Assembly (NCBI GenBank): GCA_964016885.1
Contig: OZ024742.1
Location: 229,400,001-229,464,000, forward strand
Length of the DNA stretch: 64,000 nucleotides
Direction: 5' to 3'
Origin: Eledone cirrhosa
Lineage: Eukaryota
Shown one piece after another: positions 6,205-56,495 of the stretch; position 1 is the first letter of the stretch; every line of letters starts with the position of its first letter. The translations under genes and the position numbers were made by a program. A model generated the notes under the pieces. That model saw only the letters and a list, made by a program, of their open reading frames with translations. It searched no databases and was not told where the DNA came from.

Positions 6205-8572
6205 CAACCTCGTGCTCGTCAGGAGGGCCAACAAGGAACTGATGGCCCTCGTAGCACGAAGTGAAGATATACAAAAAGATGGGGACATTTTTAAATCGAG
6301 CACATTTCGCGTGCCGGAAGGTTTGGTTCTGGTGCGAATGTCGCTCGATTTATACAAAGAAATACGAGACAGCTTTCCTCGGGACGTGGGAACCCCGAAC
6401 GTAAAACCCACTTCAAGACTTTTAAAGGGGTTCCCAAAAGAAACCCCACCAACTATTGAGGTCGAACAACCCGACCTTCACAAGATCCCGGAAGGTAAGT
6501 AAACCTTTCCTCTGATTCTTTTAACCTGCCAACTGGCCGTATTAAGAGTAGGAAGTTTAAATGTTCGAGGCCTGGGATCGTTCTGGAAGCAGGGTCCCCT
6601 GCTCAACGAACTCGGGTCTCCAGAAATGGATGTAATTGCAGTCAGCGAGACTAGGGTTTTCCGACACGCGCGCACTAGCCCCCATTTTCGACGACTATCA
6701 GATCTTTGCATCTGTTAGCCGGCCGGGAATGGGAGGCGGGGTGGCAGTGCTGTTTAGGAAAGGCCTGGATCTCGAGGTAAGGTCGATCTTCCGGGACCCG
6801 GACGGGAAGTTGGTGGTCCTGGACGTGAATAATAACGAAGGTGGTGCCTTTAGAATGGTGGCCGTCTATGCCCCTACTGGGGCAGGACGGCCTGACTTCT
6901 TTAGACGCCTGGAAGCCTTTCTGGGTACGTCTCGCCCTTTACTGTTAGCGGGGGACTGGAACGGCATCTTAGACGCACGCTGGGACGCACGCTGTCTGAC
7001 AGGTACCGACTAGATTTCCCTAATGCGTCAGTGTGGACCTGGACCAACCGCATAGGGTCATCTAGATCGTATATAGACAGGATATTCATTAGGAAAATAG
7101 ACAGAAATAGTGTAGGCTGTCCACGTTTTAAAACGATCGCCTATTCAGATCACAAGTTTGTGATCTGTATGGGCGACCTAGATAAGATGCGTAGGTTAGG
7201 ACCTGGTTACTAGAAGCTAAACATGTCATTTCCGGCACGTAAGGCTTACAGGGACCAGGTCAACAATTTAGTTAAGAAAAAGTTGACAGGGGTAGTCGTC
7301 AACAATAGATGGTGGGGGGCTCTCAAAAGAGAGATTAGAGTAATGTCGATAGAGTTTAGCAAAGAAGTACCATTAGAGAAAAATAGAAAGGAGGTGGAGT
7401 TGGTAGATAAGTTAGACGAGGCTATTGGTAGTGGCATTGCAACTGATATGGTAGTGGCGAGAATGGCATTAGACGATTTCTTCAATGCGAAACACGAAGG
7501 TTGCATTGTCAGTGTTAAGGCCCGTGCTCTGAGCAACGAGGGACCCAAAGCTGTTCGATGGGCCCGCATGGCAGAGGCGCAGCTTGGTAATAAAACCACG
7601 ATTCGGTCTTTGACGGACGAAGACGGACACGAGCTGAGCGATTCCAAGCTGATGTGTGAGGCCTTTCGCCAATATTTTGCTCCGTTGTTCGGGGTAAGTG
7701 GCGGGGCGGAGACGGTGGCGGACTTCAGTCCCTACCTCGATGGCTTGCCGCAACTCTCGACAGCTGACGCTGGGCGCTGCGAAAGGCCAATTACTTCAGC
7801 CGAGATTCAGGATGCCCTTGTCGGCTGCATGAGGCGCAAGTCACCCGGTTTGGATGGTCTGCCCTACGAGCTTTACGTAAATATGCCAGACTTGTTCTAC
7901 AATCTCCTCGAAGCCCTCTACTGCAACTGGCAGCAAAACGGGAGTATTCCCAGTTCTGCGAGCCGGGGCGTAGTGACGCTGATAAGGAAAGACGAGAATA
8001 AGAGGGACATATTAGACAATTTCAGGCCCATAACTCTGCTCAACACAGAGTTTCAGATTTTGGCCAGGATGTAAGCGAAGAGGTTGGCGCTTGTCGTCGG
8101 GCATTTGGTTGGGGAGGCGCAAACTTGCGCAATCCCAACCAGGTCCATACACGACAACCTCCACCTAATGCGATACATCATAGAGAGGGTAGGGTGTAAA
8201 CCTGGCTTCGGTGGGGCTCTGATCAATTTAGATCAATCGAAAGCATTCGATAGGATCGACCATCGGTACCTGGAGGCTGTCTTCAAGGCGGCTGGCTTCG
8301 GCCCTGTCTTCAGAAGCTGGATCGCTGCAATGCGATGGTCGTCAAAATGTATGGCCACCTCTCGGAACCGTTTCAGATCTCCCGATCGGTCCGACAAGTG
8401 TCCGTCTCTCTTCTCTTATGTACGTATTGACTCTCGAGCCTTTACTGCGGAAGCTGGAGCTGTTGCAGGGCATTCCGCTCGAACCGGGACGCGGAAACGC
8501 TGTGTCGCCTTATGCGGACGACATCACCGTCTATTGTCCTCTATATGTCGGCCCTTGTGGCCAATAAATGAA

Positions 8573-8575
<3 letters not shown>
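6205..8575 (+). mobile_element. Degenerate Tx1/L1-clade non-LTR retrotransposon (possible ORF1 piece, APE endonuclease, RT; internally deleted)
   Basis: RVGSLNVRGL, VAVYAP, LLAGDWN, SYIDRIF, YSDHK (APE); KSPGLDGLPYELY, NFRPITLLN, LDQSKAFDRI (RT); stops and frameshifts; 3' end GTGGCCAATAAATGAA(ATT)n. Clearly homologous to 33497-35686. Confidence 0.88.
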
Positions 8576-8607
<32 letters not shown>

Positions 8608-9873
8608 TTATATATATATATATATGCATAGATATTTACGCATGTATACATGTATGATAACACACACACACACAAACATTCTACCTTCGTCGTATCCTTC
8701 TTTTTTCATCTCACATACCTAGACGTAACACATCACTTCTCGTACAGTCAACTTATCCATACACTCATAACATGCATGATATATATATATATACTGTTCT
8801 TTTTCTCTCTATATTTCTCATGACCCGCACTTTCTCTACCCATACATAATGTAGGAATACAGTTTCCATTCCACGTTTCAATACTATCATCTGGAACTAA
8901 TTTTCGCATTTAATGTTTCTAATATAGACCGTAAGTTAATATAATGTCCGATAATAAACGTATATAAAAATATTTCCTACTCTAATAAAAGTAAAGTTCA
9001 AAATGGCGCACTGATTATTTGGCTTGTGTAGGAAATAGGAATAAAAAGTAAAAGGTAGAAGCATTATATTCCTCCTTTACAATTTACTAGTTATTTGAAA
9101 ATTAGCTGTCAGCTGTCATGGAGAGTGAAAACACTGCCAGTAAGAGAAAGCAAAGCAAAACAACAACAACTAAGTAAATAAAGCAGAAAAAAATGATAGA
9201 TTTAACAATAAAGGACCAATCAGTGTTGTAGGTGTTGATCTTTGGGTTTAGCTTGAAGGCTTAATAAAATTCCTATTTGAATATAAATTATATGTTACCA
9301 GCTGCCAACTAATAACATAGAAAATAAGAATATTGGTATTTGTTGTACAAATCTTGGTATCGTGTTTAGAATAAAAGAATAGAGACTCCATCACCTAGTT
9401 TCGATTTCCTGTCAGGAGTTACTTTATATACTTAAAGAATTGCTCTTTGAAAAAGCATGAACGTTACAATTTCCCATTATTTAATTTCTCAATAAATATG
9501 TTTCTTTTAGAATCTAATGATTCGGGTGTCTATACAATGATGCATCTCTGATTACATTTGTGCGCAGTGGAGCGGATTGCTTAGAAGCATATAAATAAAA
9601 TTTGGGTCAATTTTCATGAACAATGTTTAGACATTTTGGTAGTGAAAACAGAAAATTTGTTTAAAATTTTACCAAAATTATTTAATTTGTAGTAAAATAA
9701 CAGAGACGTTACACACCAGAGTCTTTGTCAGTATTTGTTACAGATATCTGTTCACTATGTTCAAAACCAGCCATGGTCAAATATGCCCTTCATTCATTCG
9801 GGGTTAAGAAGTAATGAAACCTGTTTACGTGTGGCGGATGGGTTCGCTTCGCGATCCAGTATAATGTCGTACG

Positions 9874-17243: not shown

Positions 17244-18012
17244 GTATATTTATTGATAATAACAACAATTCAAAATATCAGTTCAAAATTGACCAATGAA
17301 AACACAAAGGGTTAAAAAGCAGTTTGGTGTGTGTATATACATGTAAAAACCTTACACATATTTTACAATAATGTGTGTATAATTTGTATGTGCATACTAA
17401 AAAGATGGATGCAAATACAAAATTTCAAGGTTAATATCTCTGTAAGCTTAATGCGCTGATAAGATACGCAATGATACTTATGGAGTCAAGCATATAAATA
17501 TATTTTTTTCATACTCACACATATCAGTATAATCACACATACATGTGCGTATATGTATAAATATACACATAACCACGAACATACAAACACACACACTCCC
17601 CCACTCACATTTATATATGTGGATATAAAATCATAAGCAAATAGAAATTAAGTCACTCACATAAAAACACTGGTACACACATTTCAAGATCAAGATACAG
17701 AAATTAGGTGGGAGGGGGGGGGAGGGGTCAGTATTAGATTGTCAGACCAGACAGCCTAATATAAATGTATCTATAAATAAAGAAAAATAAAAAAATAAAA
17801 ACAATAAAATATAATACATATAATATAATATACATACGCATACATATATACATACACATACATACATGTACGCGCACATAGAGATATCTACACATACATA
17901 CATACACACATACCTATACTGTCATACACACACATACATTTACACGAACATACACATACACATATAAAAAGATATAAATACACACACACACACGCGCAAC
18001 ACATACACACAT

Positions 18013-18053
<41 letters not shown>

Positions 18054-18407
18054 TATACACACACACATAGACTCATATATATATATACATACACATACAT
18101 ACACATATACAAACATATATATCCCCACACTCATACCACCATAAAAACACATACAAACACCCAGATGTATATATATATATATATATATACATATATCAAC
18201 ATACACACACGTACACATATATGTATATATACATACATATATACACACATACACATATATATATACACACACACATAAAATACAGACATGCACATATATA
18301 TATATATATATATATTTCATTACTCTTATATATACACATAGTATATATACATACACAACCTCACTTATACACATATACACATAAGTTATATTACAATAAT
18401 AATAAAG

Positions 18408-18462
<55 letters not shown>

Positions 18463-18581
18463 TACATACATATATATACATACACATACATACATACACA
18501 TACATACATACACCTAAATATATACATATATAAATACACACATACGAATAAAGACATATATTCACACATAGACACCTATAT

Positions 18582-18613
<32 letters not shown>

Positions 18614-20433
18614 CTATATACACACACATACACATATGTACACACATATATATATACACATACACACACACACACACACACAGACACACATACACACTCA
18701 CATATATATATATATATATATGTGTATGTGAGTGTGCGCAAATACATATATATATACACACACACATACAAACACACACAAACACATACATATGCATACG
18801 TGCACACACACACACATATATCACATAGATACGAAGATAAACATATAAATAGAGAGACATACAAATATATACAGAACCCATATACACATACATACAAACA
18901 CGCATATACATATATATACATATATACACACATATATATTCCTATATACAAGCATACACATACACACACATATATACATATACATACACATATACATACC
19001 ACACATTCACATACACATACATATATAATACATATATATACATATATATACATACATATGTATGTACAATCATATATACACACTCAATCTTACATTCATA
19101 TTTACATGCTCATATATGTATTTTTATATTTAGAAATAAATACCAAAACCTATATAGACACCCATCTACACATATATTCATACATATACGCTTACAAAAA
19201 CAGATGATAATAGTATGGGGGAAAGGGGGGGTTTGGAGAAGGGGATCAAAGTAAATATATGTTTCAAGAAACATATAATATTTTCCATATCTTAATTCAA
19301 TGTATGTTCTTACATATTTTCAGTGCTAGGAAATACGAAATCTATGCATCACAAAATAAAAAAGTATACCATTAATCATATGTTAACTAAACCAAAGATA
19401 GTCAACATATTGATTTCCAAGGTGTAAATTAGTTAGGTTTATAATATTTGAAGCAGAATTATGAAGTCAAACAGTAGTAGATTATTAATTACATTATAAC
19501 TAAATTAAAGTTAATAACGTTATGGTATCAATATTAGGAGATGAATTTAGTAATAGGGAAAAGAAACCCAAATAAAAATAAAATAAAGTATTACATCGGT
19601 AGTAGCATATAAATTATATGTTAACTAAATTAAAAATTATATATTTATTTCAATAGTATACGTTAATTAGTATATGTTAATTAGGTATACAATACATAAA
19701 ACAGATATTGTATTTCATCAATAGCATAATATAATTATATGCAAATAAAAATCAAAATTAATACGCATACATATACATATACATACACATACACATATAT
19801 ATACATATACATACATATATATATATATATATATACACATATATACACATACATACATATATAGTCACATAAATATACATACAGATACACATACAACACA
19901 CACATATACATATACATATAGATATACATATCTTTTTCAAAAAATTGCACAGAATATATTAACTAGGTATATATCCAAAACACCTCCCATTCTATGATTA
20001 CATGACATTCTGCAATTCGTCTGTACAAGGATACTAATTTTAAGCAAATTAAAATTAAAGTTTTAGGTTGATTAAAACTAAAACCAAATAATAAATATAT
20101 TTCCAAAATGTATATTAATTAGGTCTATAATACTAAAAATTCTTTCTCCGTCATAGGATACATGATATTATTTTGTTATATTTTATCTGTAAAAGAATTA
20201 TAATAAAAAAAATTATAATAAAAGGTTAAACTAAATTAAAAAATTATAATAAAAGGTTAAAATAAGTTAAAATTAATCTATAAATTAAATTACTGAATAT
20301 ATATTAGTAATATTTAAAGGTTTTTCAAAATTTATGATTACATAATATTTTCTCATCTGTAATAAAATATTAATTAAATTAAATTTATAGGTTAACTAAC
20401 ATTTAAATTAAATTAAATTCTAGAATAATGTTA

Positions 20434-22119
20434 TTAATTAGGTTTATAATATTTAAATGTTTTTTTTAGTTTATGATTACACGATATAATTAATTCCTGT
20501 CTTTTATTTAATAAGATATCCCTAGACTTCATTATTTCAAATAGTTCTTGGGAACATAATCTACATTCCTTTCTATTATTTTGATAAGGGGTGGCTCTTT
20601 TGAGCACACTCCAGGTCAAATCATATTTTATATTTTTATTTTTATAACTATTGATTTTTTCTGCTAGAGATGTTGTATTAGCCAGTGCGGCATTTTTAAA
20701 GCTATGTTTGTGGGTATTATACCTTGTCTTAAAATTGTTAGAGGTAGCTCCTATATATGAGCAAATAGAATCTTTAGTTTTAACATTACATTTATAGACT
20801 ATGTTGTTAACAAGACAATTCCCTTTTAATGGGCAGTTTGTTTTGTTTCTACAGTTACATCCTTTCGTTAATTCTGTATTTGAGGAGATATTATTGTTAA
20901 TTTGATGTACTGGTGGTATACTTATGGTTTTCTTACATTTATATGCATTATATGCACTTATATTTTGTTTTATGTTATTTGTTGTAGAGTATGAGAATTT
21001 AACTGTAGACCTATTTAAGATTTGATGGTATTTGTGGTTTGGCGGGAAGTTTTTCTCAAGGATATAAAAAAATTTTTTAGCAATATTATCCTTAACTTGT
21101 ACATTAAAAGGAGCATTATACCAAGTAACTCGTCTATTACGGTTTCTATGTTGTTTATTATTTTTATTATTTTTATATGTTGTATCATGATTTTTACTAG
21201 GAGGATTAATGTTAATGATCTCACCACAACTATTTTTAGTTATATTTGTAGATTTAGGTGTTTTATCTTTTTTATTAGGAGTTTTATTATTAATATTTAT
21301 TATAGTCGTATGATGAGTAGTTTTTTGAGGGTTACTATACTTTATATTAGAAGATTTAGTATTTTGGGGTATACTGTGGGTGGCATTTAGGTGTGTACTT
21401 TTCATTTGGTGTTTGTTGGTAATATTATGCTGTATGCTTTCAGTATTTTTAGTAGAAGGTATATACTCTAATCTATTTTTGTGGCCACTTCTATCTAGAG
21501 CTTCATTATAAAAGGTCGCATTTTTATCAAATACATCTTGGTTAGAAGAAAGGTTAGAAATTCTAAGTGATATATTATATGCAAGGTTTTTAAGGATAGA
21601 TTTAGGGTGATTAGATTGTGAGTGTATGTAATGTAAGTTTTGGTTAGGTTTATGGTAAGGTTGGTATATACCCGTAGCTAAATCTAAAGTTATATCTAGG
21701 AAATTTACTACTTTACTTGTTTTTTCAAAAGTAATATTAAGATTATAATAGTCTTTAAGGAAAGTTCTAATATGCTTTTTGTTTTTTTCGATTTCTGAAA
21801 GGCTAAGGTTGTTAGAAAGAAGAAGACAGTCATCACGATATAAACCACCTTTGAGGTGGGGAAAAGAGGCATTTATGTTGAAAAGGAGAAAGAGGCCCAC
21901 AAGATCAGTAATTTGGGCAGAATCGCTTGAACCCATAGTAATATCAAAAAGATTACTGTAAGTGTTTCTGGTCCAGTATTCATTCTGAAATTCAATAAGT
22001 GTTTGTCTAGCATGTGTAATAATGTTAATGTCATCCGAAGTTAAATTAGATCTATTTTTAGCAAATATTAATGCTTTGTTCAGGAGTATGGGTGATATAG
22101 AAGAATAGTAATTATCTAT
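20434..22119 (-). CDS. 5'-truncated but uninterrupted Naiad-type PLE RT + GIY-YIG ORF
   Basis: Frame is open upstream of the called Met: IDNYYSSIS (motif A), FDITMGSSDSAQITDLVGL, GLYRDD, NFLDITLDL, SNHP, CNCRNKTNCPLKGNCL, IVYKC..YIGAT..FKTRYNTH, CRLC, LLNKRQELIISCNH. Confidence 0.92.
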   Translation of the reverse strand: MDNYYSSISPILLNKALIFAKNRSNLTSDDINIITHARQTLIEFQNEYWTRNTYSNLFDITMGSSDSAQITDLVGLFLLFNINASFPHLKGGLYRDDCLLLSNNLSLSEIEKNKKHIRTFLKDYYNLNITFEKTSKVVNFLDITLDLATGIYQPYHKPNQNLHYIHSQSNHPKSILKNLAYNISLRISNLSSNQDVFDKNATFYNEALDRSGHKNRLEYIPSTKNTESIQHNITNKHQMKSTHLNATHSIPQNTKSSNIKYSNPQKTTHHTTIININNKTPNKKDKTPKSTNITKNSCGEIININPPSKNHDTTYKNNKNNKQHRNRNRRVTWYNAPFNVQVKDNIAKKFFYILEKNFPPNHKYHQILNRSTVKFSYSTTNNIKQNISAYNAYKCKKTISIPPVHQINNNISSNTELTKGCNCRNKTNCPLKGNCLVNNIVYKCNVKTKDSICSYIGATSNNFKTRYNTHKHSFKNAALANTTSLAEKINSYKNKNIKYDLTWSVLKRATPYQNNRKECRLCSQELFEIMKSRDILLNKRQELIISCNHKLKKTFKYYKPN

Positions 22120-23183
22120 ACATATACTAATTAACGTATACTATTGAAATAAATATATAATTTTTAATTTAGTTAACATATAATTTATATGCTACTACCG
22201 ATGTAATACTTTATTTTATTTTTATTTGGGTTTCTATTCCCTATTACTAAATTCATCTCCTAATATTGATACCATAACGTTATTAACTTTAATTTAGTTA
22301 TAATGTAATTAATAATCTACTACTGTTTGACTTCATAATTCTGCTTCAAATATTATAAACCTAACTAATTTACACCTTGGAAATCAATATGTTGACTATC
22401 TTTGGTTTAGTTAACATATGATTAATGGTATACTTTTTTATTTTGTGATGCATAGATTTCGTATTTCCTAGCACTGAAAATATGTAAGAACATACATTGA
22501 ATTAAGATATGGAAAATATTATATGTTTCTTGAAACATATATTTACTTTGATCCCCTTCTCCAAACCCCCCCTTTCCCCCATACTATTATCATCTGTTTT
22601 TGTAAGCGTATATGTATGAATATATGTGTAGATGGGTGTCTATATAGGTTTTGGTATTTATTTCTAAATATAAAAATACATATATGAGCATGTAAATATG
22701 AATGTAAGATTGAGTGTGTATATATGATTGTACATACATATGTATGTATATATATGTATATATATGTATTATATATGTATGTGTATGTGAATGTGTGGTA
22801 TGTATATGTGTATGTATATGTATATATGTGTGTGTATGTGTATGCTTGTATATAGGAATATATATGTGTGTATATATGTATATATATGTATATGCGTGTT
22901 TGTATGTATGTGTATATGGGTTCTGTATATATTTGTATGTCTCTCTATTTATATGTTTATCTTCGTATCTATGTGATATATGTGTGTGTGTGTGCACGTA
23001 TGCATATGTATGTGTTTGTGTGTGTTTGTATGTGTGTGTGTATATATATATGTATTTGCGCACACTCACATACACATATATATATATATATATATGTGAG
23101 TGTGTATGTGTGTCTGTGTGTGTGTGTGTGTGTGTATGTGTATATATATATGTGTGTACATATGTGTATGTGTGTGTATATAG

Positions 23184-23215
<32 letters not shown>

Positions 23216-23334
23216 ATATAGGTGTCTATGTGTGAATATATGTCTTTATTCGTATGTGTGTATTTATATATGTATATATTTAGGTGTATGTATGTATGTG
23301 TATGTATGTATGTGTATGTATATATATGTATGTA

Positions 23335-23389
<55 letters not shown>

Positions 23390-23743
23390 CTTTATTATTA
23401 TTGTAATATAACTTATGTGTATATGTGTATAAGTGAGGTTGTGTATGTATATATACTATGTGTATATATAAGAGTAATGAAATATATATATATATATATA
23501 TATGTGCATGTCTGTATTTTATGTGTGTGTGTATATATATATGTGTATGTGTGTATATATGTATGTATATATACATATATGTGTACGTGTGTGTATGTTG
23601 ATATATGTATATATATATATATATATATACATCTGGGTGTTTGTATGTGTTTTTATGGTGGTATGAGTGTGGGGATATATATGTTTGTATATGTGTATGT
23701 ATGTGTATGTATATATATATATGAGTCTATGTGTGTGTGTATA

Positions 23744-23784
<41 letters not shown>

Positions 23785-24552
23785 ATGTGTGTATGTGTTG
23801 CGCGTGTGTGTGTGTGTATTTATATCTTTTTATATGTGTATGTGTATGTTCGTGTAAATGTATGTGTGTGTATGACAGTATAGGTATGTGTGTATGTATG
23901 TATGTGTAGATATCTCTATGTGCGCGTACATGTATGTATGTGTATGTATATATGTATGCGTATGTATATTATATTATATGTATTATATTTTATTGTTTTT
24001 ATTTTTTTATTTTTCTTTATTTATAGATACATTTATATTAGGCTGTCTGGTCTGACAATCTAATACTGACCCCTCCCCCCCCTCCCACCTAATTTCTGTA
24101 TCTTGATCTTGAAATGTGTGTACCAGTGTTTTTATGTGAGTGACTTAATTTCTATTTGCTTATGATTTTATATCCACATATATAAATGTGAGTGGGGGAG
24201 TGTGTGTGTTTGTATGTTCGTGGTTATGTGTATATTTATACATATACGCACATGTATGTGTGATTATACTGATATGTGTGAGTATGAAAAAAATATATTT
24301 ATATGCTTGACTCCATAAGTATCATTGCGTATCTTATCAGCGCATTAAGCTTACAGAGATATTAACCTTGAAATTTTGTATTTGCATCCATCTTTTTAGT
24401 ATGCACATACAAATTATACACACATTATTGTAAAATATGTGTAAGGTTTTTACATGTATATACACACACCAAACTGCTTTTTAACCCTTTGTGTTTTCAT
24501 TGGTCAATTTTGAACTGATATTTTGAATTGTTGTTATTATCAATAAATATAC

Positions 24553-33496: not shown

Positions 33497-35686
33497 TTTC
33501 TTTATTAGCCACAGGGGCACAAAAGAAGGGGACAAATACAAAGGGGGAAGTTTACATACAATAAAAACGTGTAAAATGTTATCACAGATGGAATTTAAAA
33601 GTTAGTCGATTTTCCCCAATAGAGGGAGACAGTTTATATGGGTAACACAGACCCCCGAAAAAAATGTGCAACCCTCATCTCCAGGAGTACGAAGAGCTTG
33701 TACTCCTTTCCTCTCCTCCTCCTTTTCCTCAACCTACAGGCTGATATAGAGAGAAGGCCCATTCACTCGGGCCATTCTCGCCACTTTCACCCACCTTTCA
33801 TAAAACTTGCTGGGGTACAGCACCTCTCTCTCCATCCTGATTCTTCTTCCAAAGTGGTATTTGAAAAAAAGAATCAGTTGTTGGCCGGAGAGAAAGGTGT
33901 CTGACCTCAGCCCTTTCAACCTTGTCCACCATACAACCTCTTTCGCCATAGCTATCACACAAAGGAAAACCGCCTCTCCTTCGTTTTTGAAGGAGGGTGG
34001 CGGTTTGATCATGACAATGGACTCGGTGGTCAACTGGATTGGTCCCACCCGCGACAATAGTCGTTCCACATAGCCCCACAGGTCAGTGACGCCCGGGCAG
34101 TGTATGAATGCGTGCGCGACGGTTTCTTCGTCTCGCACGCACCTCGGACAGATCTTTTTTGCAGGGTCCCTGCCCGGGCGCCCATGTCTGTAGAGCTTGT
34201 CTCGAACTGGTAGAGCTCCTCGGTAGCACTGCCAGGCCAGGGACTTTTGGAAGTTGTCCATCGGTCCCGGGCGGAAGGTCCTACCGAACAGACTGGCCAG
34301 TTCATCTTCCTCCACGCCTAGAGTTTCACCGAGCGCGTCGTCGCACTTGCTGCGGACCAACCCTCTATAGAATGACGAAGTGGAGTCTCCACTGATCGCC
34401 GGGTCCGCCTGCCAGAGGGCTGTGAGCGCCTGAGCACATTCGATGTGCCAGTCGCCCATTTTCCTCGGTCTCTGCTTGACCCAGGACTGCAGCTCGGTCA
34501 GCGAGACGAGTCGTGGGAAGGCTCGCCTCACGAACGGGGCCCACACCGGTTGTCCGGTGAGGAATACGTAGAGATGCCGCAGCCTGAGCGCGTGTTTGCG
34601 CATCGTCAACCACGGCATCCCCAGCCCTCCGTTAGAAGGGTGTTGGCAGCAGATGGATCTTCTTACCAAAGGAGCCCGCCTCTTCCAAAGGAATCGGAAG
34701 AGGGCGCGCTCCATTTTGGCGAGCGTTTTGGCTGGACAAGGCACGACGGTCAAGCGGTAGTAGATGGCGGACGCTATAAAAGTGTTCGCCACCTCCGCTC
34801 GACCTTTCAAGGATAGTTTGCACTCGGCCCACTTCTGGGTGAGTGCAAACACCTTGGCCGTCACTTCGTTCCAGTTCTTCTCCACCTGGAGGTCCGGACC
34901 AAACCAGACCCCGAGCAGCTTTACCGGTCCTTCCGTCCAGCGTCCGACGACGCCATCGGAAGGCATCGGTCTGCCTCTCCACGATCCGAGTTGCAAACCG
35001 ATGGACTTGTCCCGGTTCAGCTTCGCTCCTGTGAGACTTTCGTATTCCTTTAGTAAGGTGCCGACTTCCTCGATTTGCGAGGCGCTCGACACCATTACTG
35101 TCACGTCGTCGGCGTAGGCCGACGCCGCTTTCCGCAGTCCCGGTTCCAGAGGGATGCCCTGCAATAGCTCCAGCTTCCGCAGTAGTGGCTCGAGAGTCAG
35201 TACGTACAGAAGGGAGGAGAGAGGGCATCCCTGTCGAATGGATCGCGTAATATGGAACGGCTCCGAGAGGTAACCGTTCACCTTGACCCTTGAGCAGATG
35301 TTGCTGTTGTGCATTGCAGCAATCCAGCCCCTGAACACGGGTCCGAAGCCTGCCGCCTCGAGCACCGCATCCAGGTAACGATGGTCAACCCTATCGAAAG
35401 CCTTAGACTGATCCAAGTTGATCAGGGCCCCACCGAAGCCGGGTTTACACCCTACCCTCTCTATGATGTATCGCATGAGGTGGAGGTTGTCGTGTATGGA
35501 CCTGGTCGGGATCGCGCATGTCTGCGCTTCTCCCACCAGGTTCTCGACGACAAGCGCCAGCCTCTTTGCCAACACCTTGGCCAAAATCTGTAACTCTGTG
35601 TTTAGCAGAGTTATGGGCCGGAAGTTGCCTATGTCATCCCCCTTATTCTCGTCCTTCCTGATTAGTGTGACCACGCCCCCGGTTAC
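33497..35686 (-). mobile_element. 5'-truncated Tx1/L1-clade LINE inserted in (GATA)n
   Basis: Open RT ORF, 3' UTR with AATAAA, (GATA)n on both sides. Confidence 0.92.
33734..35680 (-). CDS. Tx1-like ORF2: RT and C-terminal CCHC zinc finger (5'-truncated, uninterrupted)
   Basis: NFRPITLLN, LDQSKAFDRV, RSIRQGCPLS, AYADDVT, GGLGMP, CPRC..ETVAHAFIHC. Confidence 0.93.
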   Translation of the reverse strand, partial: GGVVTLIRKDENKGDDIGNFRPITLLNTELQILAKVLAKRLALVVENLVGEAQTCAIPTRSIHDNLHLMRYIIERVGCKPGFGGALINLDQSKAFDRVDHRYLDAVLEAAGFGPVFRGWIAAMHNSNICSRVKVNGYLSEPFHITRSIRQGCPLSSLLYVLTLEPLLRKLELLQGIPLEPGLRKAASAYADDVTVMVSSASQIEEVGTLLKEYESLTGAKLNRDKSIGLQLGSWRGRPMPSDGVVGRWTEGPVKLLGVWFGPDLQVEKNWNEVTAKVFALTQKWAECKLSLKGRAEVANTFIASAIYYRLTVVPCPAKTLAKMERALFRFLWKRRAPLVRRSICCQHPSNGGLGMPWLTMRKHALRLRHLYVFLTGQPVWAPFVRRAFPRLVSLTELQSWVKQRPRKMGDWHIECAQALTALWQADPAISGDSTSSFYRGLVRSKCDDALGETLGVEEDELASLFGRTFRPGPMDNFQKSLAWQCYRGALPVRDKLYRHGRPGRDPAKKICPRCVRDEETVAHAFIHCPGVTDLWGYVERLLSRVGPIQLTTESIVMIKPPPSFKNEGEAVFLCVIAMAKEVVWWTRLKGLRSDTFLSGQQLILFFKYHFGRRIRMEREVLYPSKFYERWVKVARMARVNGPSLYISL

Positions 35687-35741
<55 letters not shown>

Positions 35742-35929
35742 CAATAGGAAATTTAAAAGAAATCAATTTAAATGGGTCCTATATTTTCTCCGTACTCATC
35801 CCTGTATTCCATCCAATAATTCATATGAATAATTTTCACGTTTCCTTTGTAATTAACTTCCCAGTTAATTGCTTTCTGCTACAACAAGCTCAAGGAACAC
35901 ATCAACACCTCTTAATGCTATAAACGCAA

Positions 35930-38900
35930 GCGCCATCACCGCCATCACCACCATCAACGCCATCGCAGTCATCACCGCCTTCACCACCACCATCACCACC
36001 ATCACCACCATCACCACCATCACCACCATCACCACCATCACCGCCATCGCCACCATCACCGCCATCGCCACCATCTCAGTCATCACCGCCTTCACCACCA
36101 CCACCATCACCGCCATCACCGCAATCACCACCATCGCCACCATCACCACCATCACCGCCATCACCACCATCACCACCATCAACGCCTTCACCGCCATCAC
36201 CACCATCGCAGTCATCACCACCATCGCAGTCATCACCGCCTCCACCACCATCACCACCATCAACGCCATCGCCACCATCACCACCATCACCGCCATCACC
36301 ACCATCACCACCACCACCGCCTTCACCGCCACCACCACCATCAACGCCATCACCGCCATCACCGCCATCACCGCCATCACCGCCATCACCGCCATCGCCA
36401 CCATCACCACCATCACCGCCATCGCCACCATCACCGCCATCGCCACCATCACCGCCATCAACACCATCACCACCATCACCACCATCACCACCATCACCAC
36501 CATCACCGCCATCGCCACCATCACCACCATCACCACCATCACCGCCATCACCACCATCACCGCCATCGCCACCATCACCACCATCACCGCCATCGCCACC
36601 ATCACCACCATCACCGCCATCACCACCATCACCGCCATCGCCACCATCACCACCATCACCGCCATCGCCACCATCACCGCCATCGCCACCATCACCGCCA
36701 TCAACGCCATCACCGCCATCACCGCCATCACCGCCATCGCCACCATCAGCGCCATCACCACCATCACCGCCATCGCCACCATCACCACCATCACCGCCAT
36801 CGCCACCATCACCGCCATCGCCACCATCACCGCCATCAACGCCATCACCGCCATCACCGCCATCACCGCCATCGCCACCATCACCGCCATCACCGCCATC
36901 ACCGCCATCACCGCCATCGCCACCATCAGCGCCATCACCACCATCACCGCCACCACCGCCATCGCCATCATCACCACCATCACCACCATCACCAGCATCA
37001 CCACCATCACCACCATCACCACCATCAACGCCATCACCGCCATCACCGCCATCGCCACCATCACCACCATCACCGCCATCACCGCCATCAACGCCATCAC
37101 CGCCATCACCGCCATCACCGCCATCACCACCATCACCGCCATCGCCACCATCACCACCATCACCGCCATCACCGCCATCACCACCATCACCGCCATCGCC
37201 ACCATCACCGCCATCACCACCATCACCGCCATCGCCACCATCACCACCATCACCACCATCACCGCCATCGCCACCATCACCGCCATCAACGCCATTACCG
37301 CCATCGCCACCATCACCGCCATCAACGCCATTACCGCCATCATCGCCATCAACGCCATTACCGCCATCATCGCCATCACCACCATCACCGCCATCAACGC
37401 CATCGCCACCATCACCACCATCGCCACCATCACCACCATCACCACCATCACCGCCATCGCCACCATCACCGCCATCAACGCCATTACCGCCATCATCGCC
37501 ATCAACGCCATTACCGCCATCATCGCCATCACCACCATCACCGCCATAAACGCCATCGCCACCATCACCGCCATCAACGCCATTACCGCCATCATCGCCA
37601 TCACCACCATCACCGCCATCAACGCCATCACCGCCATCACCACCATCACCACCATCACCGCCATCAACACCATCACCACCATCACCACCATCACCACCAT
37701 CACCACCATCACCACCATCACCGCCATCGCCAGCATCACCGCCATCAACGCCATCACCGCCATCACCACCATCACCACCATCACCGCCATCAACACCATC
37801 ACCACCATCACCACCATCACCACCATCACCACCATCACCACCATCACCGCCATCGCCACCATCACCGCCATCAACGCCATTACCGCCATCACCGCCATCA
37901 CCACCATCACCGCCATCGCCACCATCACCGCCATCACCACCATCACCGCCTCCACCGCCATCGCCATCATCACCACCATCACCAGCATCAACGCCATCAC
38001 CGCCATCACCGCCATCGCCACCATCACCACCATCACCGCCATCACCGCCATCACCGCCATCACCGCCATCACCACCATCACCGCCATCGCCACCATCACC
38101 ACCATCACCGCCATCACCGCCATCACCACCATCACCGCCATCGCCACCATCACCGCCATCGCCACCATCACCACCATCACCACCATCACCGCCATCGCCA
38201 CCATCACCACCATCACCACCATCAACGCCATCACCGCCATCACCGCCATCACCGCCATCACCACCATCACCGCCATCGCCACCATCACCGCCATCGCCAC
38301 CATCACCACCATCACCACCATCACCGCCATCGCCACCATCACCGCCATCAACGCCATTACCGCCATCATCGCCATCACCACCATCACCGCCATCAACGCC
38401 ATCACCGCCATCACCACCATCACCGCCATCACCGCCATCACCACCATCACCGCCATCGCCACCATCACCGCCATCGCCACCATCACCACCATCACCACCA
38501 TCACCGCCATCGCCACCATCACCGCCATCAACGCCATTACCGCCATCATCGCCATCACCACCATCACCGCCATCACCGCCATCACCACCATCACCACCAT
38601 CACCGCCATCGCCACCATCACCGCCATCAACGCCATCACCGCCATCACCACCATCACCACCATCACCGCCATCACCACCATCACCACCATCACCACCATC
38701 ACCGCCATCGCCACCATCACCGCCATCAACGCCATCACCGCCATCACCGCCATCACCACCATCACCACCACCACCGCCATCACCAACATCACCACCACCA
38801 CCGCCATCACCAACATCACCACCATCAACGCCATTACCGCCATCATCGCCATCACCACCATCACCGCCATCAACGCCATCACCGCCATCACCACCATCAC

Positions 38901-39610
38901 CACCATCACCGCCATCAACACCATCACCACCATCACCACCATCACCACCATCACCACCATCACCACCATCACCGCCATCGCCACCATCACCGCCATCACC
39001 GCCACCACGGCCATCACCACCATCACCTCCATCACCGCCATCACCACCATCACCGCCATCGCCACCATCACCGCCATCAACGCCATCACCGCCATCACCG
39101 CCATCACCACCATCACCACCACCACCGCCATCACCAACATCACCACCACCACCGCCATCACCAACATCACCACCATCAACGCCATCACCGCCATCACCAC
39201 CATCTCCGCCATCACCGCCATCACCACCATCTCCACCATCACCGCCATCACCACCATCACCAACATCACCACCACCACCGCCATCACCAACATCACCACC
39301 ATCAACGCCATCACCGCCATCACCGCCATCACCACCATCTCCACCATCACCGCCATCACCACCATCACCGCCATCGCCACCATCACCACCATCACCACCA
39401 TCACCGCCATCGCCACCATCACCGCCATCAACGCCATTACCGCCATCATCGCCATCACCACCATCACCAACATCACCACCATCAACGCCATCACCGCCAT
39501 CACCGCCATCACCATCATCTCCACCATCACCACCATCACCACCATCACCACCATCACCGCCATCACCACCACCACCACCGCCACTACCACCTCCTCCATC
39601 GCCACCGCCG
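35930..39610. repeat. 3.7-kb 9-bp-period satellite (ACC/GCC ACC/GCC ATC)n
   Basis: Direct reading; triplet phase is kept throughout. Confidence 0.95.
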
Positions 39611-39786
39611 CAAGCGCCCAACCAATGCCACCACATCCACGAATACAATACATTACTACTAATACTCTTACTCACCCTCCCCATCCTCCTCCTGTCCTCA
39701 ACCCCTCCTCCACATCTCCTCCTCTCCCGCCCCTCTACTCCTCATGCTCCCTCCTGCCCGTCACCCCACCCTCCTCCTCATCCTCC

Positions 39787-40345: not shown

Positions 40346-40659
40346 GGTGCTGTTACTATCACCACAATCAGCTCCACTACCACAAGTATTAACATAATCA
40401 ACAATAAGCAACACTATTAGCCTCCACTATCATTTGCACGACTACTATTACCCTCCACAACGATTACCCTCCACAAATATTACCCACCACTACGATTGCT
40501 CTCCTACAACAACCATTACCCCCCCCCCCCCCACTATCATTACCATTACTCCCTTCTACCATCAGCCCGCTCCCCTACCCCCACAACCATTACCCACTAC
40601 CATTACCATTCTCTACGATAACCCTCCAGACACATTACTCACCACTACCATTACCACAA

Positions 40660-41830
40660 TCATTACCCCCTTCTACCATTACCCTGGTAACATTACTCCG
40701 TCTACCATTATCATTACCCCCTTCTACCATTACCCTGGTAACATTACTCCGTCTACCACTATCATTACCCCCTTCTACCATTACCCTGGTAACATTACTC
40801 CGTCTACCACTATCATTATCCCCTTCTACCATTAGCCTGCTAACATTACTCCCTCTACCACTATCACTACCCCGTCTACCATTACCCTGGTAACATTACT
40901 CCCTCTACCACTCTCATTATCCCCTTCTACCATTACCCTGGTAACATTACTCCGTCTACCATTATCATTACCCCCTTCTACCATTACCCTGGTAACATTA
41001 CTCTGTCTACCACTATCATTACCCCCTTCTACCATTACCCTGGTAACATTACTCCGTCTACCATTATCATTACCCCCTTCTACCATTACCCTGGTAACAT
41101 TACTCCGTCTACCACTATCATTATCCCCTTCTACCATTAGCCTGCTAACATTACTCCCTCTACCACTATCACTACCCCGTCTACCATTACCCTGGTAACA
41201 TTACTCCCTCTACCACTCTCATTATCCCCTTCTACCATTACCCTGGTAACATTACTCTGTCTACCACTATCATTACCCCCTTCTACCATTACCCTGGTAA
41301 CATTACTCCGTCTACCATTATCATTACCCCCTTCTACCATTACCCTGGTAACATTACTCCGTCTACCATTATCATTACCCCCTTCTACCATTACCCTGGT
41401 AACATTACTCCGTCTACCACTATCATTACCCCTCTACCATTAGCCTGCTACCATTACTCCCTTTACCATTATCATTACCCAACTAACATTACTCCCTCTA
41501 CCATTATCATTACCCCCTACTACCATTAGCCTGCTACCATTACTCCCTCTACCATTACCATTATCCCCTTCTACCATGAGCCTACTACCATTACTATCTC
41601 TACTATTACCATTATCCCCTTCTACAATTAGCCTGTTACCATTACTCCCTCTACCATTATCATTACCCCCTTCTACCATTAGCCTGCTACCATTACTCAC
41701 CACTACCATTACCATTATGCCCTTCTACCATTAGCCTGTTACCATTACTCACCACTACCATTACCACCCACTATCATTACCACAGTCATTATCCCCTTCC
41801 ACCATTAGCCTGTTACCATTACTCTCACTA
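40660..41830. repeat. 51-bp minisatellite with ~305-bp higher-order duplication, decaying rightwards
   Basis: ACCCTGGTAACATTACTCC at 40681, 40732, 40783 and onwards; variant TAGCCTGCTAAC units 305 bp apart. Confidence 0.9.
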
Positions 41831-53940: not shown

Positions 53941-54247
53941 TTTCAAATCCACTCGCTGTTTCGAAAATATTCTTACTTGACATTAGAGTCGCTAAGTTTA
54001 TAGCTTCTAATTTGAATAGAAAAAGACGAGTGATGTGTTGGTGTAAATGGTAGCACAGTGGTCCGGTTAACCAAAGATGTGGGTTCGACTGCCATGTACG
54101 TCAATACTCATCTTTTTCCATTTCTCCGAGGATTCTTAACCCCACTATCAGGCTAAATAATTTCTTTAATTTTTTTAGTCAAAATACGGCGATAGCTAAC
54201 ATTTCTAATAATTTCAAATCCACTCGCTGTTTCGAAAATATTCTTAC
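53941..54247 (+). mobile_element. tRNA-containing structured element, direct partial tandem (271-bp unit)
   Basis: TTTCAAATCCACTCGCTGTTTCGAAAATATTCTTAC at 53941 and 54212; internal A box TGGTGTAAATGG and B box GGTTCGACT; (TA)n flanks. Confidence 0.75.
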
Positions 54248-54268
54248 ATATATGTATATATATATATG

Positions 54269-54301
<33 letters not shown>

Positions 54302-54808
54302 GTATATATATATATATGCATTGTGTCCCAAAAGAACTATACACACATTGATTACTTGTACAGGCAATATTTTTTAGAATGTTGTTGAAGTGTTTATACA
54401 TTTTTTGGGACACCCTATATACATATATACAGAACTTTGACGAAAGTTGGAAGAATGACGAAATATACAGATTGGAAGATCAAAACTGTAAGAATATGGT
54501 CAATGTCACATAACAACAATAAATTAATAACGTTTGTTATTGCAAATATGTGCTCAGTACCACTAAAACTTAGAAGGTATTTTAAGCTAATAAACCTCGA
54601 ATCACAAATTGCTAACCTTCAAATGGCTGATCCTGTTGAGCCCTGCACATATTCTCAGAAAAGTACTGCCTGCTATGGTGCATGTTGAGACACAACAAAC
54701 ACTGAAAGATATAATAATCAAGATATCTACTCTGTAGGGGCTCCTCCCAAAGTTTGAAGCCACCTATTCATAACGTGATATATTTATATATACTGTATAT
54801 ATATATAG

Positions 54809-55243
54809 AAAGAAATTTCTAGCCTGATAGTGGGGTTTATAACCCTCGGAGAAATGGAAAAAGATGAGTGTTGCAGTACATGGGAGTCGAACCCACATCT
54901 TTGGTTATCCAGACCACTGTGCTACCATTACACCAATACACATCCCGTCTCCTTCCATTGGAATTAGAAGCTATGAACTTAGCAAGTGAATGATAAACAA
55001 GCAAATTATAAATTGGTGTAATAGTACCACAGTGGTCTGGATAACCAAGGATGTGGGTTCGACTCCCATGTACTGCAACACTCATCTTTTTCCATTTCTC
55101 CGAGGGTTATAAACCCCACTATCAGGCTAGAAATTTCTTTAGTCTAAAATACGGTGAAAGCTTATAATTTCTAATTTCTAATTTTCAAACTCGCGCACCG
55201 TTTCAAAAACATACTTACATGTTTACATTTATAATTTGCTTGT
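54809..55243. mobile_element. Same tRNA-containing element as head-to-head inverted pair with ~100-bp tail
   Basis: 54809-54936 is mirrored by 55012-55140; A/B boxes in both arms; tail 55141-55243. Confidence 0.8.
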
Positions 55244-55264
55244 ATATATATATATATATATATA

Positions 55265-56495
55265 CGTGGGAAAGTAAAAAATCGGAGAATAGACCGTTAA
55301 AACATGTTTATTTAAAATATCACCTACGTACGTTTCGCCCAGTTGGGCTTCTCAAGGGCATAAATAATCACAACTGTTCCTTATATTCCTCGGAAAGAGT
55401 TTTTGGGTTAAATCCACATCAAGGTTCATTGCTCGCAAAAATATCTTGTTTTGATTTTGCAGCAGGTCAAGGGAGGTAACTCTGGCCGGTGTTAGGGCAG
55501 TCTTTCCCGGACAAATTTTTTTCTTTTTTTTTTTTGCCGCATCCGTTTGTCTGAGGCTGGGTCTGGTATGCAAGGATTGTTTACTGGGTGTTATTTTGCA
55601 GCGCCTGCCCGCCGGGGTGTTAAGACTTGTTGCAGGGAGATCCAGTGTACTATTTCACTCTTCATCCTTAACCCATCTGAAGAAGGATATTTTTAAGCGA
55701 TGTGTACAACTTATCGCTGTTTCAGCTCTGCTGTTGATGAGCTCGTGGGGTGCAGTTATGATGTGGTAGAGCTCCATGAGGCAAAGATCGCATTTCCTCT
55801 TGAAGTTGTACGGTGTAGCCCTGCCGACAATCTCCCAGTGCGTGGAGAAGCTGATGTTTAAGTCCTTTAGTGATGTGATGTAGTCCGCGAGCGAAGTGGA
55901 GTGCCTAAGTTTTCTATTTGTGAAAGAGTGGAGATGTGTTCGAAACCTAATTTTGAACGGGCCGGAGGTGGCCCCTATATAATGTTTAACGCTATTGTGG
56001 CTAGTAATAGTGCATCTATATATAACCCTATCAGTCAAGCAGTATCCTCTAAGGGGGCAGCGTCCTCTGTCGTGGCAGTTGCAATTTCTGTCGCGGTTCC
56101 GTCTATTTCCCACGGTAAGGCTATCATTGTTGCTGCGTACGTTGTTACCTACGCTACCGCAGCTGTCGTTAGCACAATTACAACCCACAGCACGCGGGGT
56201 GGTGCGATTGTTATTCCGCACGTCATGTCCTGCATGTTCCCCAGTCATTTCGCGGTCATTCTGGTTGCGTCTGCGGATGCCGTTGCCAACACTATTGGAT
56301 GCTGCCAGGGAGTTGTTAAGGCCGATATAGTTATTGTCAGGTGTAGGTGCGTCTGTGTCGAGGTGCTGTGTCTTGGTGATCTTACTGTGGTTCGTTGTTC
56401 CTATGATGTCTGCTAGGTTAGGAGTAGTAGAGAAGGATATTTTTATATTGTTCCTATTAAGAATTTTTCTATACCTATGGTTGGGCGGGAAGTTA
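55265..56495 (-). mobile_element. Naiad-like PLE, 5'-truncated; open linker + GIY-YIG frame 55655-56495
   Basis: [79 protein letters not shown]. Confidence 0.88.
55322..55359 (-). ncRNA. Minimal hammerhead (variant core UUGAGAA)
   Basis: CC-TTGAGAA-GCCC aact GGGC-GAAAC GTAC GTA-GG. Confidence 0.7.

Follow-up and report, generated by a model that had tools for sequence, protein, structure and literature searches.

Animal retrozymes, as presented in the accessible portions of PMC7229834 and bioRxiv 10.64898/2026.07.22.740005, are non-coding, low-GC tandem units of 150-450 nt that occur as anything from dimers to arrays and have been proposed to derive from PLEs; the circles they form are described in the former source as closed by RtcB. 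The schistosome element Sm-alpha (PMC2770079 and PMC6765202, in excerpt) is derived from tRNA-Gln, is arranged in tandem, and combines an active hammerhead with an internal Pol III promoter from which the following unit is transcribed. The insertion signature of the PLEs themselves is set out in sections 6 and 15 of PMC8557442, and the excerpted text of PMC11167929 defines the PLE tail by two internal RT start sites. The splicing of tRNAs is also relevant here. An archaeal enzyme cut a tandem tRNA transcript in vitro (PMC3978253, accessible portion), and the metazoan TSEN rules given in the accessible part of PMC6614914 call for a C-G proximal pair, a 3-nt bulge and 6 nt to the end of the 5' exon, with a middle G-U tolerated and splicing lowered by a fully paired helix; the intron is closed by RtcB (same source), and animal TSEN also requires the tRNA body (PMC10485636, in excerpt).

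The window copies and their family

The window analysed here, a 64,000-nucleotide stretch of Eledone cirrhosa DNA, contains two copies of a tRNA-bearing repeat, each adjoining TA runs. The first, of subfamily A (53941-54247, + strand), is a 271-nt monomer plus 36 nt, a 1.13-mer flanked by TA runs, the last 36 nt of which (54212-54247, +) directly repeat 53941-53976 and cover the interval from proximal to distal 3' end that constitutes the PLE "tail". Along the + strand of this copy lie hairpin H4 (53991-54004), with a GCTA/TAGC stem that is identical in A, B, C, E and O and loops that vary; the 5' strand of a long stem, P0, that prolongs the acceptor stem (54019-54031); a tRNA-Gln-derived cloverleaf including A and B boxes (54032-54103); and the 3' strand of P0 (54106-54118), containing a Pol III terminator-like T5 run at 54113-54117. 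The anticodon loop of the cloverleaf (54063-54069, +) carries the self-complementary CCGG at positions 32-35, followed by positions 36-38, and would make up one half of the bulge-helix-bulge predicted for a tandem dimer. Beyond P0, on the same strand, come hairpins H1 (54128-54143), H2 (GGCTA/TAGTC, 54151-54180) and H3 (ACGGCG/CGCTGT, 54186-54230); the proximal 3' ends fall in the loop of H3 and the distal ones, in family A, 10-25 nt downstream of this hairpin.

The second copy belongs to subfamily B, with a unit of 291 nt, and is an inverted pair. Its inverted arm (54809-55011, - strand) includes the entire tRNA module, with the anticodon loop at 54906-54912, and its direct arm (55012-55243, +) begins at about tRNA +6, has its anticodon loop at 55037-55043 and H3 at 55151-55201, and runs through its distal 3' end into (TA)n; a 16-nt wrap motif occurs at 54997 (-) and 55228 (+). 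The two copies are 79-87% identical and are separate insertions from two subfamilies, with unrelated DNA between them. All of the features that the original prediction had placed in the window (the 1.13-mer, the inverted pair, the wrap motif, the long stem and the two hairpins) were confirmed there; the compensatory C-G to T-A change that it had seen in H3 is likewise real, with CpG-type transitions on both sides. Rfam gives tRNA matches of 38 bits (54876-54939, -) and 33.8 bits (54032-54103, +), the gathering score being 29, and ARAGORN calls one tRNA in the window copies. The folding z-score of copy A alone against shuffles is -0.52, null on both strands, so the case for structure is carried by covariation. 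Between the copies, at 54323-54413, lies a short element of very high contig depth with 11-nt terminal inverted repeats, which we take to be MITE-like.

Elsewhere in the window are LINE-like frames with RT motifs recognised by eye, at 33734-35752 (-), open for 672 codons, and 6636-8722 (+). A long GC-rich tandem repeat of 18/27 nt (35931-39611) and a 51-nt repeat (40652-41780) contain frames of more than 900 codons, in several frames, rich in Pro/Ser, Thr or His, possibly a repetitive exon.

The family is large. An exact 16-mer has 4,831 matches in genome G000 (3.0 Gb) and a degenerate motif at least 7,347, with none for the controls of either search. Subfamilies A, B, C, C2, D and E and an older group O were recovered, all with low-GC, non-coding, tandem monomers of 259-293 nt and a common order of H4, P0, tRNA, P0 partner with its T run, H1-H3 and an AT-rich end; the hairpins are conserved between families. 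ORFs are absent, and every monomer is too short for an RT to fit. Tandem arrangements include dimers, trimers (L005 and L024) and runs of up to 25 units, the longest being a head-to-tail array of family C at G000:C1:131458900-131465830 (L370, L371), preceded on the 5' side by an inverted 1.5-mer and closed by a distal 3' end of the normal kind. A 25-round rolling-circle product was considered as the source of this array and rejected, the units being 15% apart and sharing variants out of order; the array expanded after insertion, and its existence means that circles are unnecessary for multimeric templates. Haplotypes are nevertheless shared among units of one insertion, in 35 of 54 minor-allele comparisons in A against a proportion of 0.14 between loci, in 6 of 14 in C and weakly in B (8 of 34); this fits the copying of one circle, and a young homogeneous array would give the same.

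The tRNA module and its anticodon loop

The internal tRNA-Gln-like module that had been predicted is borne out by the Rfam scores and by 38 columns that are invariant between it and two genomic tRNA-Gln genes (tRNA-Gln being the isotype compared). Pairing holds in 99 of the 105 stem cells of the five family consensuses, and 17 of 20 two-sided changes, with the Gln gene included, preserve pairing. Among 30 real copies, chosen from a set of 47 and related to one another, 84.3% of 899 cells are paired, against 79.0% when shuffled and 26-56% when slid, and cells changed on both sides number 63 against 24.9 in shuffles (0/500 as high); measures based on pair counts or pair types, for the cloverleaf and the loop, did not rise above shuffles (65/500, 177/500, 63/500 and 55/500). 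The stems thus covary, on the 99 of 105 cells and the 63 against 24.9, as the original prediction had asked of them, and the tRNA fold is almost certainly under selection. The anticodon letters vary among copies, so the module is not a decoding tRNA. Both A and B boxes are intact in the consensuses of A, B, C and O, and family E is without the B-box A58; unconstrained folds of the monomers are not clean cloverleaves. Two observations on tRNA-like sequences elsewhere may be added: a tRNA-Gln motif cluster at G000:C1:168211721-168275594 has 19 matches, many about 1.4-2.5 kb apart, of 49 genome-wide, and ARAGORN finds a tRNA with a CTA anticodon in L219.

Of particular interest is the anticodon loop, where positions 32-35 remain self-complementary as the letters change and are followed by three unpaired bases, a feature new to this analysis. 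The letters are CCGG in 44 of 51 for A, CTGG in 43 and CCGG in 9 of 57 for B, CATG in 14 of 19 for E, and CTGG in 7 of 19 rows for C (rows that include pattern noise); group O has CGCG or CCGG with CpG decay. The loop of the parent tRNA-Gln is not self-complementary, and U33 has been lost in three different ways. Treated as two pairs in the 30 copies, positions 32-35 have 90% of 60 cells paired, compared with 66.7% after shuffling and no more than 43% after sliding. Attention fell on the palindrome post hoc, and a genome-wide search with a pattern requiring non-G at position 34 followed the formation of the idea; it returned 376 matches, and among the first 100 listed 71 are CGCG and 83 are self-complementary (hand count), with no non-pairing 4-mer at 32-35 above 3 copies in those 100 arms. 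In a tree of the 47 copies, built with the loop left out, the CGCG copies branch from within CTGG lineages, with moderate branch support, which implies that a double transversion founded a subfamily with the palindrome kept. Of the 16 possible inner dinucleotides 6 can pair, and the four observed all belong to these 6 (p about 0.008, post hoc); CATG and CTGG are the weaker evidence, because CpG decay can produce both.

Ends of the insertions

For the anatomy of the insertions, 130 motif-picked stretches of contig C1 were mapped (30 loci from the 16-mer search and 100 fetched stretches, 40 of them selected in the main as variants other than A/B and in part as inverted pairs), and removal of 8 overlapping and 1 matchless left 121 loci; with that choice, and with two probable segmental duplicates kept in the set, the fractions are approximate. 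Arm counts omit L155 and arms with a 3' end before position 130, which leaves 194 arms in 119 loci. Head-to-head pairs make up 71 of the 121 loci, in a sample partly picked for inverted pairs, and 60 of the 71 have one proximal and one distal 3' end, the two classes lying about 40-65 nt apart (161-183 and 206-223 in A, 154-180 and 197-217 in C, 160-180 and 227-244 in B). An arm exceeds one monomer in 16 of 121 loci, giving a partial head-to-tail tandem or pseudo-LTR, and (TA)3 directly follows 159 of 194 3' ends. The family thus shows the partial tandems, the 5' truncation with an inverted arm and the two-class tail of a PLE, as well as an AT-rich or microsatellite target, by the (TA)3 count, and no TSD visible on inspection. 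The two classes of 3' end match the RT start sites in the excerpted text of PMC11167929, which makes the tRNA-sense strand the likely template. PLE-type mobilisation of a non-autonomous element is highly probable, and the anatomy of the 121 loci upholds the earlier claim of a non-autonomous, PLE-like insertion.

The 5' ends were counted in 160 arms reaching position 105 or beyond, with tRNA +1 as position 1. By far the most frequent stop lies in the T arm, at 53-69 (83 of 134 arms at risk), and it recurs in single-arm loci (22 of 41); such stops are expected with a folded template, and part of the effect may come from structure, from microhomology or from a modification of A58. Short palindromes and AT at 62-69 favour junctions around this stop. 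A further 13 of 158 arms end at 86-97. Close to the tRNA start, 9 of 37 arms end at -2 to +11 (p about 0.002 against a background of 0.006 per nt) and four more at -7 to -10, which suggests some linear templates with tRNA-like 5' ends; 28 of the 37 arms reaching +11 continue upstream. A start at the tRNA 5' end in just 9 of 160 arms agrees with the original prediction that this is not an ordinary SINE.

Around the anticodon loop, none of the 51 arms at risk ends at 35-40, so a linear excised monomer is not a main template. Ends at 41-42 were considered and set aside as mostly alignment artefacts of fold-back junctions, and junctions near 39-42 number two (L067 and L228), too few to count. At one internal junction, in L222:1034-1242, one segment terminates precisely at position 37 of the tRNA, where TSEN is predicted to cut, a single case. 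In contigs of runs X1-X3, from one sample that may have supplied the assembly, depth falls upstream of the T arm, but the profile is too smoothed for a step at position 38 and was set aside as evidence.

Candidate processing routes

We favour the reading, at a probability slightly above one half (roughly 0.52), that this is a non-coding repeat of PLE anatomy with a conserved tRNA cloverleaf, probably moved in trans by a PLE, whose dimer is predicted to be cut by TSEN and closed by RtcB into a template circle. On the modelled dimer it would be a ribozyme-free, retrozyme-like circular-RNA element that hijacks host tRNA splicing, the intron being the element itself and the circle being copied in rolling-circle fashion by a PLE RT, a description to which we give even odds. 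The TSEN/RtcB circle, as a step by itself, we regard as a toss-up. The original prediction had allowed for processing by tRNA enzymes, and the specific candidate would be TSEN acting on the bulge-helix-bulge of the dimer.

A tandem locus would be transcribed from about tRNA +1 of one unit to the T run after the tRNA of the next, by Pol III if it passes the first T run, or else through Pol II read-through. The two units would then swap anticodon stems, which would leave a 4-bp helix (32-35) flanked by two 3-nt bulges (36-38); this arrangement is predicted to match the bulge-helix-bulge of tRNA splicing exactly, at the canonical 37/38 site, with an intact tRNA body and one monomer as intron. TSEN would cut after both positions 37, and RtcB would join the ends into a seamless circle, as in tricRNAs. 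The PLE protein would nick (TA)n on both strands and its RT would start in the H3 loop and just after H3, where the 3' ends lie. Judging by the end statistics, the cDNAs would mostly stop at the T arm, with those that pass it running round to yield 1.x- to 3-mers, and two would join head to head.

The geometry given in the accessible part of PMC6614914 is found in the modelled dimer: C32 pairs with the third-last intron base, the bulge is 3 nt and there are 6 nt to the 5' cut; the required tRNA body (acceptor, D, anticodon and T stems) is supplied by the module. The ends that TSEN produces are those of hammerhead cleavage. In five of six monomers the exchanged fold is the more stable by 0.9-7.7 kcal/mol, but a Gln-loop control is favoured as much (by 3.8-5.5), so the energies single out the palindrome clearly in A alone; the helices of A and C2 consist of four G-C pairs, although a fully paired helix lowered splicing in PMC6614914. 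A T5-T6 run stands 8-12 nt downstream of the tRNA in all six monomers, with a second T5 in E, and it would lie between the two loops of the dimer, so that Pol III should often stop inside the "intron" and must read through once. The earlier description of the element as Pol III-driven is accordingly uncertain, being favoured by the 5' ends at +1 and near -8 but not by the T5-T6 run in each unit or by family E, which is without A58.

The palindrome might instead serve as a kissing loop that dimerises two uncut RNAs of a PLE-type parasite for a dimeric PLE protein, with multimers arising by read-through of tandem loci, a possibility that we consider doubtful. The palindrome alone would suffice for it, two arms are seen in 71 of 121 loci, and the PLE protein is a predicted dimer that worked mainly on uncut RNA in vitro (PMC11167929, in excerpt). 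Long arrays exist, as this explanation supposes, and the arms of L014 differ in private variants. Kissing loops usually use the loop centre, however, and neither the exact placement at 32-35 with three leftover bases nor the covarying of the whole tRNA body is explained, while the helix is just 4 bp. It is rather doubtful, too, that the module is simply an internal Pol III promoter with an RNase P-type signal, the palindrome being due to chance and CpG decay and the multimers to tandem sources. Helenus and Cassandra provide a precedent (PMC10886601, accessible portion), the 5' ends cluster at -2 to +11 with four at -7 to -10, the boxes are intact in A, B, C and O, and the folding energies lend the palindrome little support. 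Yet a promoter has no need of a covarying anticodon stem, and E was amplified without A58; the CTGG to CGCG double transversion founded a large subfamily, no non-pairing subfamily was seen, and the inner dinucleotides all pair (p about 0.008, post hoc).

That the cluster of hairpins H1-H4 is an undescribed or decayed self-cleaving ribozyme which processes the tandem RNA is very unlikely. These hairpins are conserved across families, and a sense GAAA-GCUU stretch resembles minimal hammerheads elsewhere in the genome, but GAAA is GAUA in A and GGAA in E, the first hammerhead core is absent in A, E and O with isolated look-alikes in B and C, and an antisense look-alike is lost in family O; Rfam has no ribozyme match at gathering in the window and none up to E=5 in 7 loci. 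Least probable of all, to the point of being barely tenable, is an ordinary tRNA SINE with a preference for (TA)n. The element is tRNA-derived, has A and B boxes, and in 9 arms begins near +1, but 28 of 37 arms at +11 continue upstream, 71 of 121 loci are head to head, the 3' ends fall in two fixed classes and tandems reach 25 units; by these end statistics an ordinary SINE is excluded, unless the contig C1 sample is unrepresentative.

With no Rfam ribozyme match and no conserved hammerhead core, the earlier statement that the element has no canonical HHR stands, and its suggestion of a different ribozyme is left without support. An antisense hammerhead (look-alikes of CUGAUAG, GAAAC and GUA) was considered and rejected, as its stem I starts off the cut site, family O is without the motifs and G-U pairs favour the sense strand; a sense hammerhead relic was rejected as unconserved between families. 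When a donor hammerhead carrying the tail of the element was sought, 142 matches were obtained against 24 in the control, but the 30 loci read contained no intact hammerhead with that tail, and L289 and L293 proved to be chance junctions. The same pattern brought up a number of repeat families whose minimal hammerhead-like cores end in GAAAGCUU (L286, L298, L290, L294 and L308).

An autonomous partner PLE sharing the 3' sequence of the element was not found by the short-motif and donor searches. The short-motif search of the PMC8557442 supplement, in which line wraps and shortened runs can hide matches, returned chance matches alone, and a metagenome scan gave 5 matches, with further similarity absent by eye. 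PLE-like frames are common near copies of the element. In the window, 20434-22140 (-) holds a 568-codon frame with a PLE-like RT and GIY-YIG, and around it the same translated stretches occur twice, at about 17800-19250 and, on the opposite strand, at about 22540-24000, as a large inverted duplication. A separate 5'-truncated, PLE-like fragment at 55267-56494 (-) ends in (TA)n and has a frame that is GIY-YIG-like by eye and 33% identical to the one at 20434-22140; Pfam finds no family in the two neighbouring PLE-like frames. Within this fragment, at about 55321-55358, there is a minimal hammerhead in which U3-A8 replaces C3-G8 and stem III is palindromic.

Comparison with known systems

If TSEN does cut the dimer, the circular intermediate of this mobile element would be produced, ribozyme-free, by the host tRNA-splicing machinery, and the element would be of a categorically new kind; animal TSEN would then have a natural substrate other than a tRNA, and the formation of multimers in ribozyme-free PLE parasites might be accounted for. 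The literature searched, with repeat databases and subscription papers outside its scope, contained neither this family nor a mobile element processed by TSEN, and neither was found in the accessible portions of PMC13247085, PMC3978253, PMC10886601, PMC13282606 and PMC4758252. Even without TSEN, the repeat is a tRNA-containing, non-autonomous family of PLE type, likely filed as a SINE by repeat pipelines, and its many ends record where PLE copying starts and stops in nature.

Among described elements, the TRIMp3 group (Helenus, Ajax and Cassandra; PMC10886601, accessible portion) is likewise non-autonomous with an internal promoter derived from a small RNA, but is of LTR type, with a PBS, a PPT and a 4-5 bp TSD not seen in the Eledone element (PBS and PPT judged by eye), which has variable 5' ends, inverted arms and no fixed LTR pair. 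Schistosome Sm-alpha shares the tRNA-Gln origin and the tandem units; its hammerhead is active, whereas the Eledone element has none, and the excerpted accounts describe no role for its anticodon loop. The PLEs, notably the HHR-less Naiad/Chlamys clade and non-autonomous copies of MRC1 type (PMC8557442 and PMC11167929, in part), resemble the element in 5' truncation, partial tandems, an inverted arm, a 30-40 nt tail, a (TA)n target and the lack of a visible TSD, and differ in that the Eledone element has no ORF and an internal tRNA; a short-motif search found no sequence shared with the Naiad, Chlamys or Hydra consensuses in the accessible published material.

The animal non-LTR retrozymes, as far as the accessible descriptions go, are similar in their tandem, non-coding, low-GC units, in their range from dimers to long arrays and in their proposed non-autonomous derivation from PLEs. 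They have a type I hammerhead in every unit, however, and the Eledone element has none, its cut being proposed to come from TSEN; it would work in a retrozyme-like manner but, lacking the hammerhead, is not classed as a retrozyme. The tricRNAs and permuted tRNA genes (PMC6614914, PMC10485636 and PMC3978253, in excerpt) have the bulge-helix-bulge at 37/38, the TSEN cut and the circle closed by RtcB that are predicted here. Those, in contrast, are host genes with a tRNA as product, while here the "intron" would be a whole mobile unit with a cloverleaf of its own.
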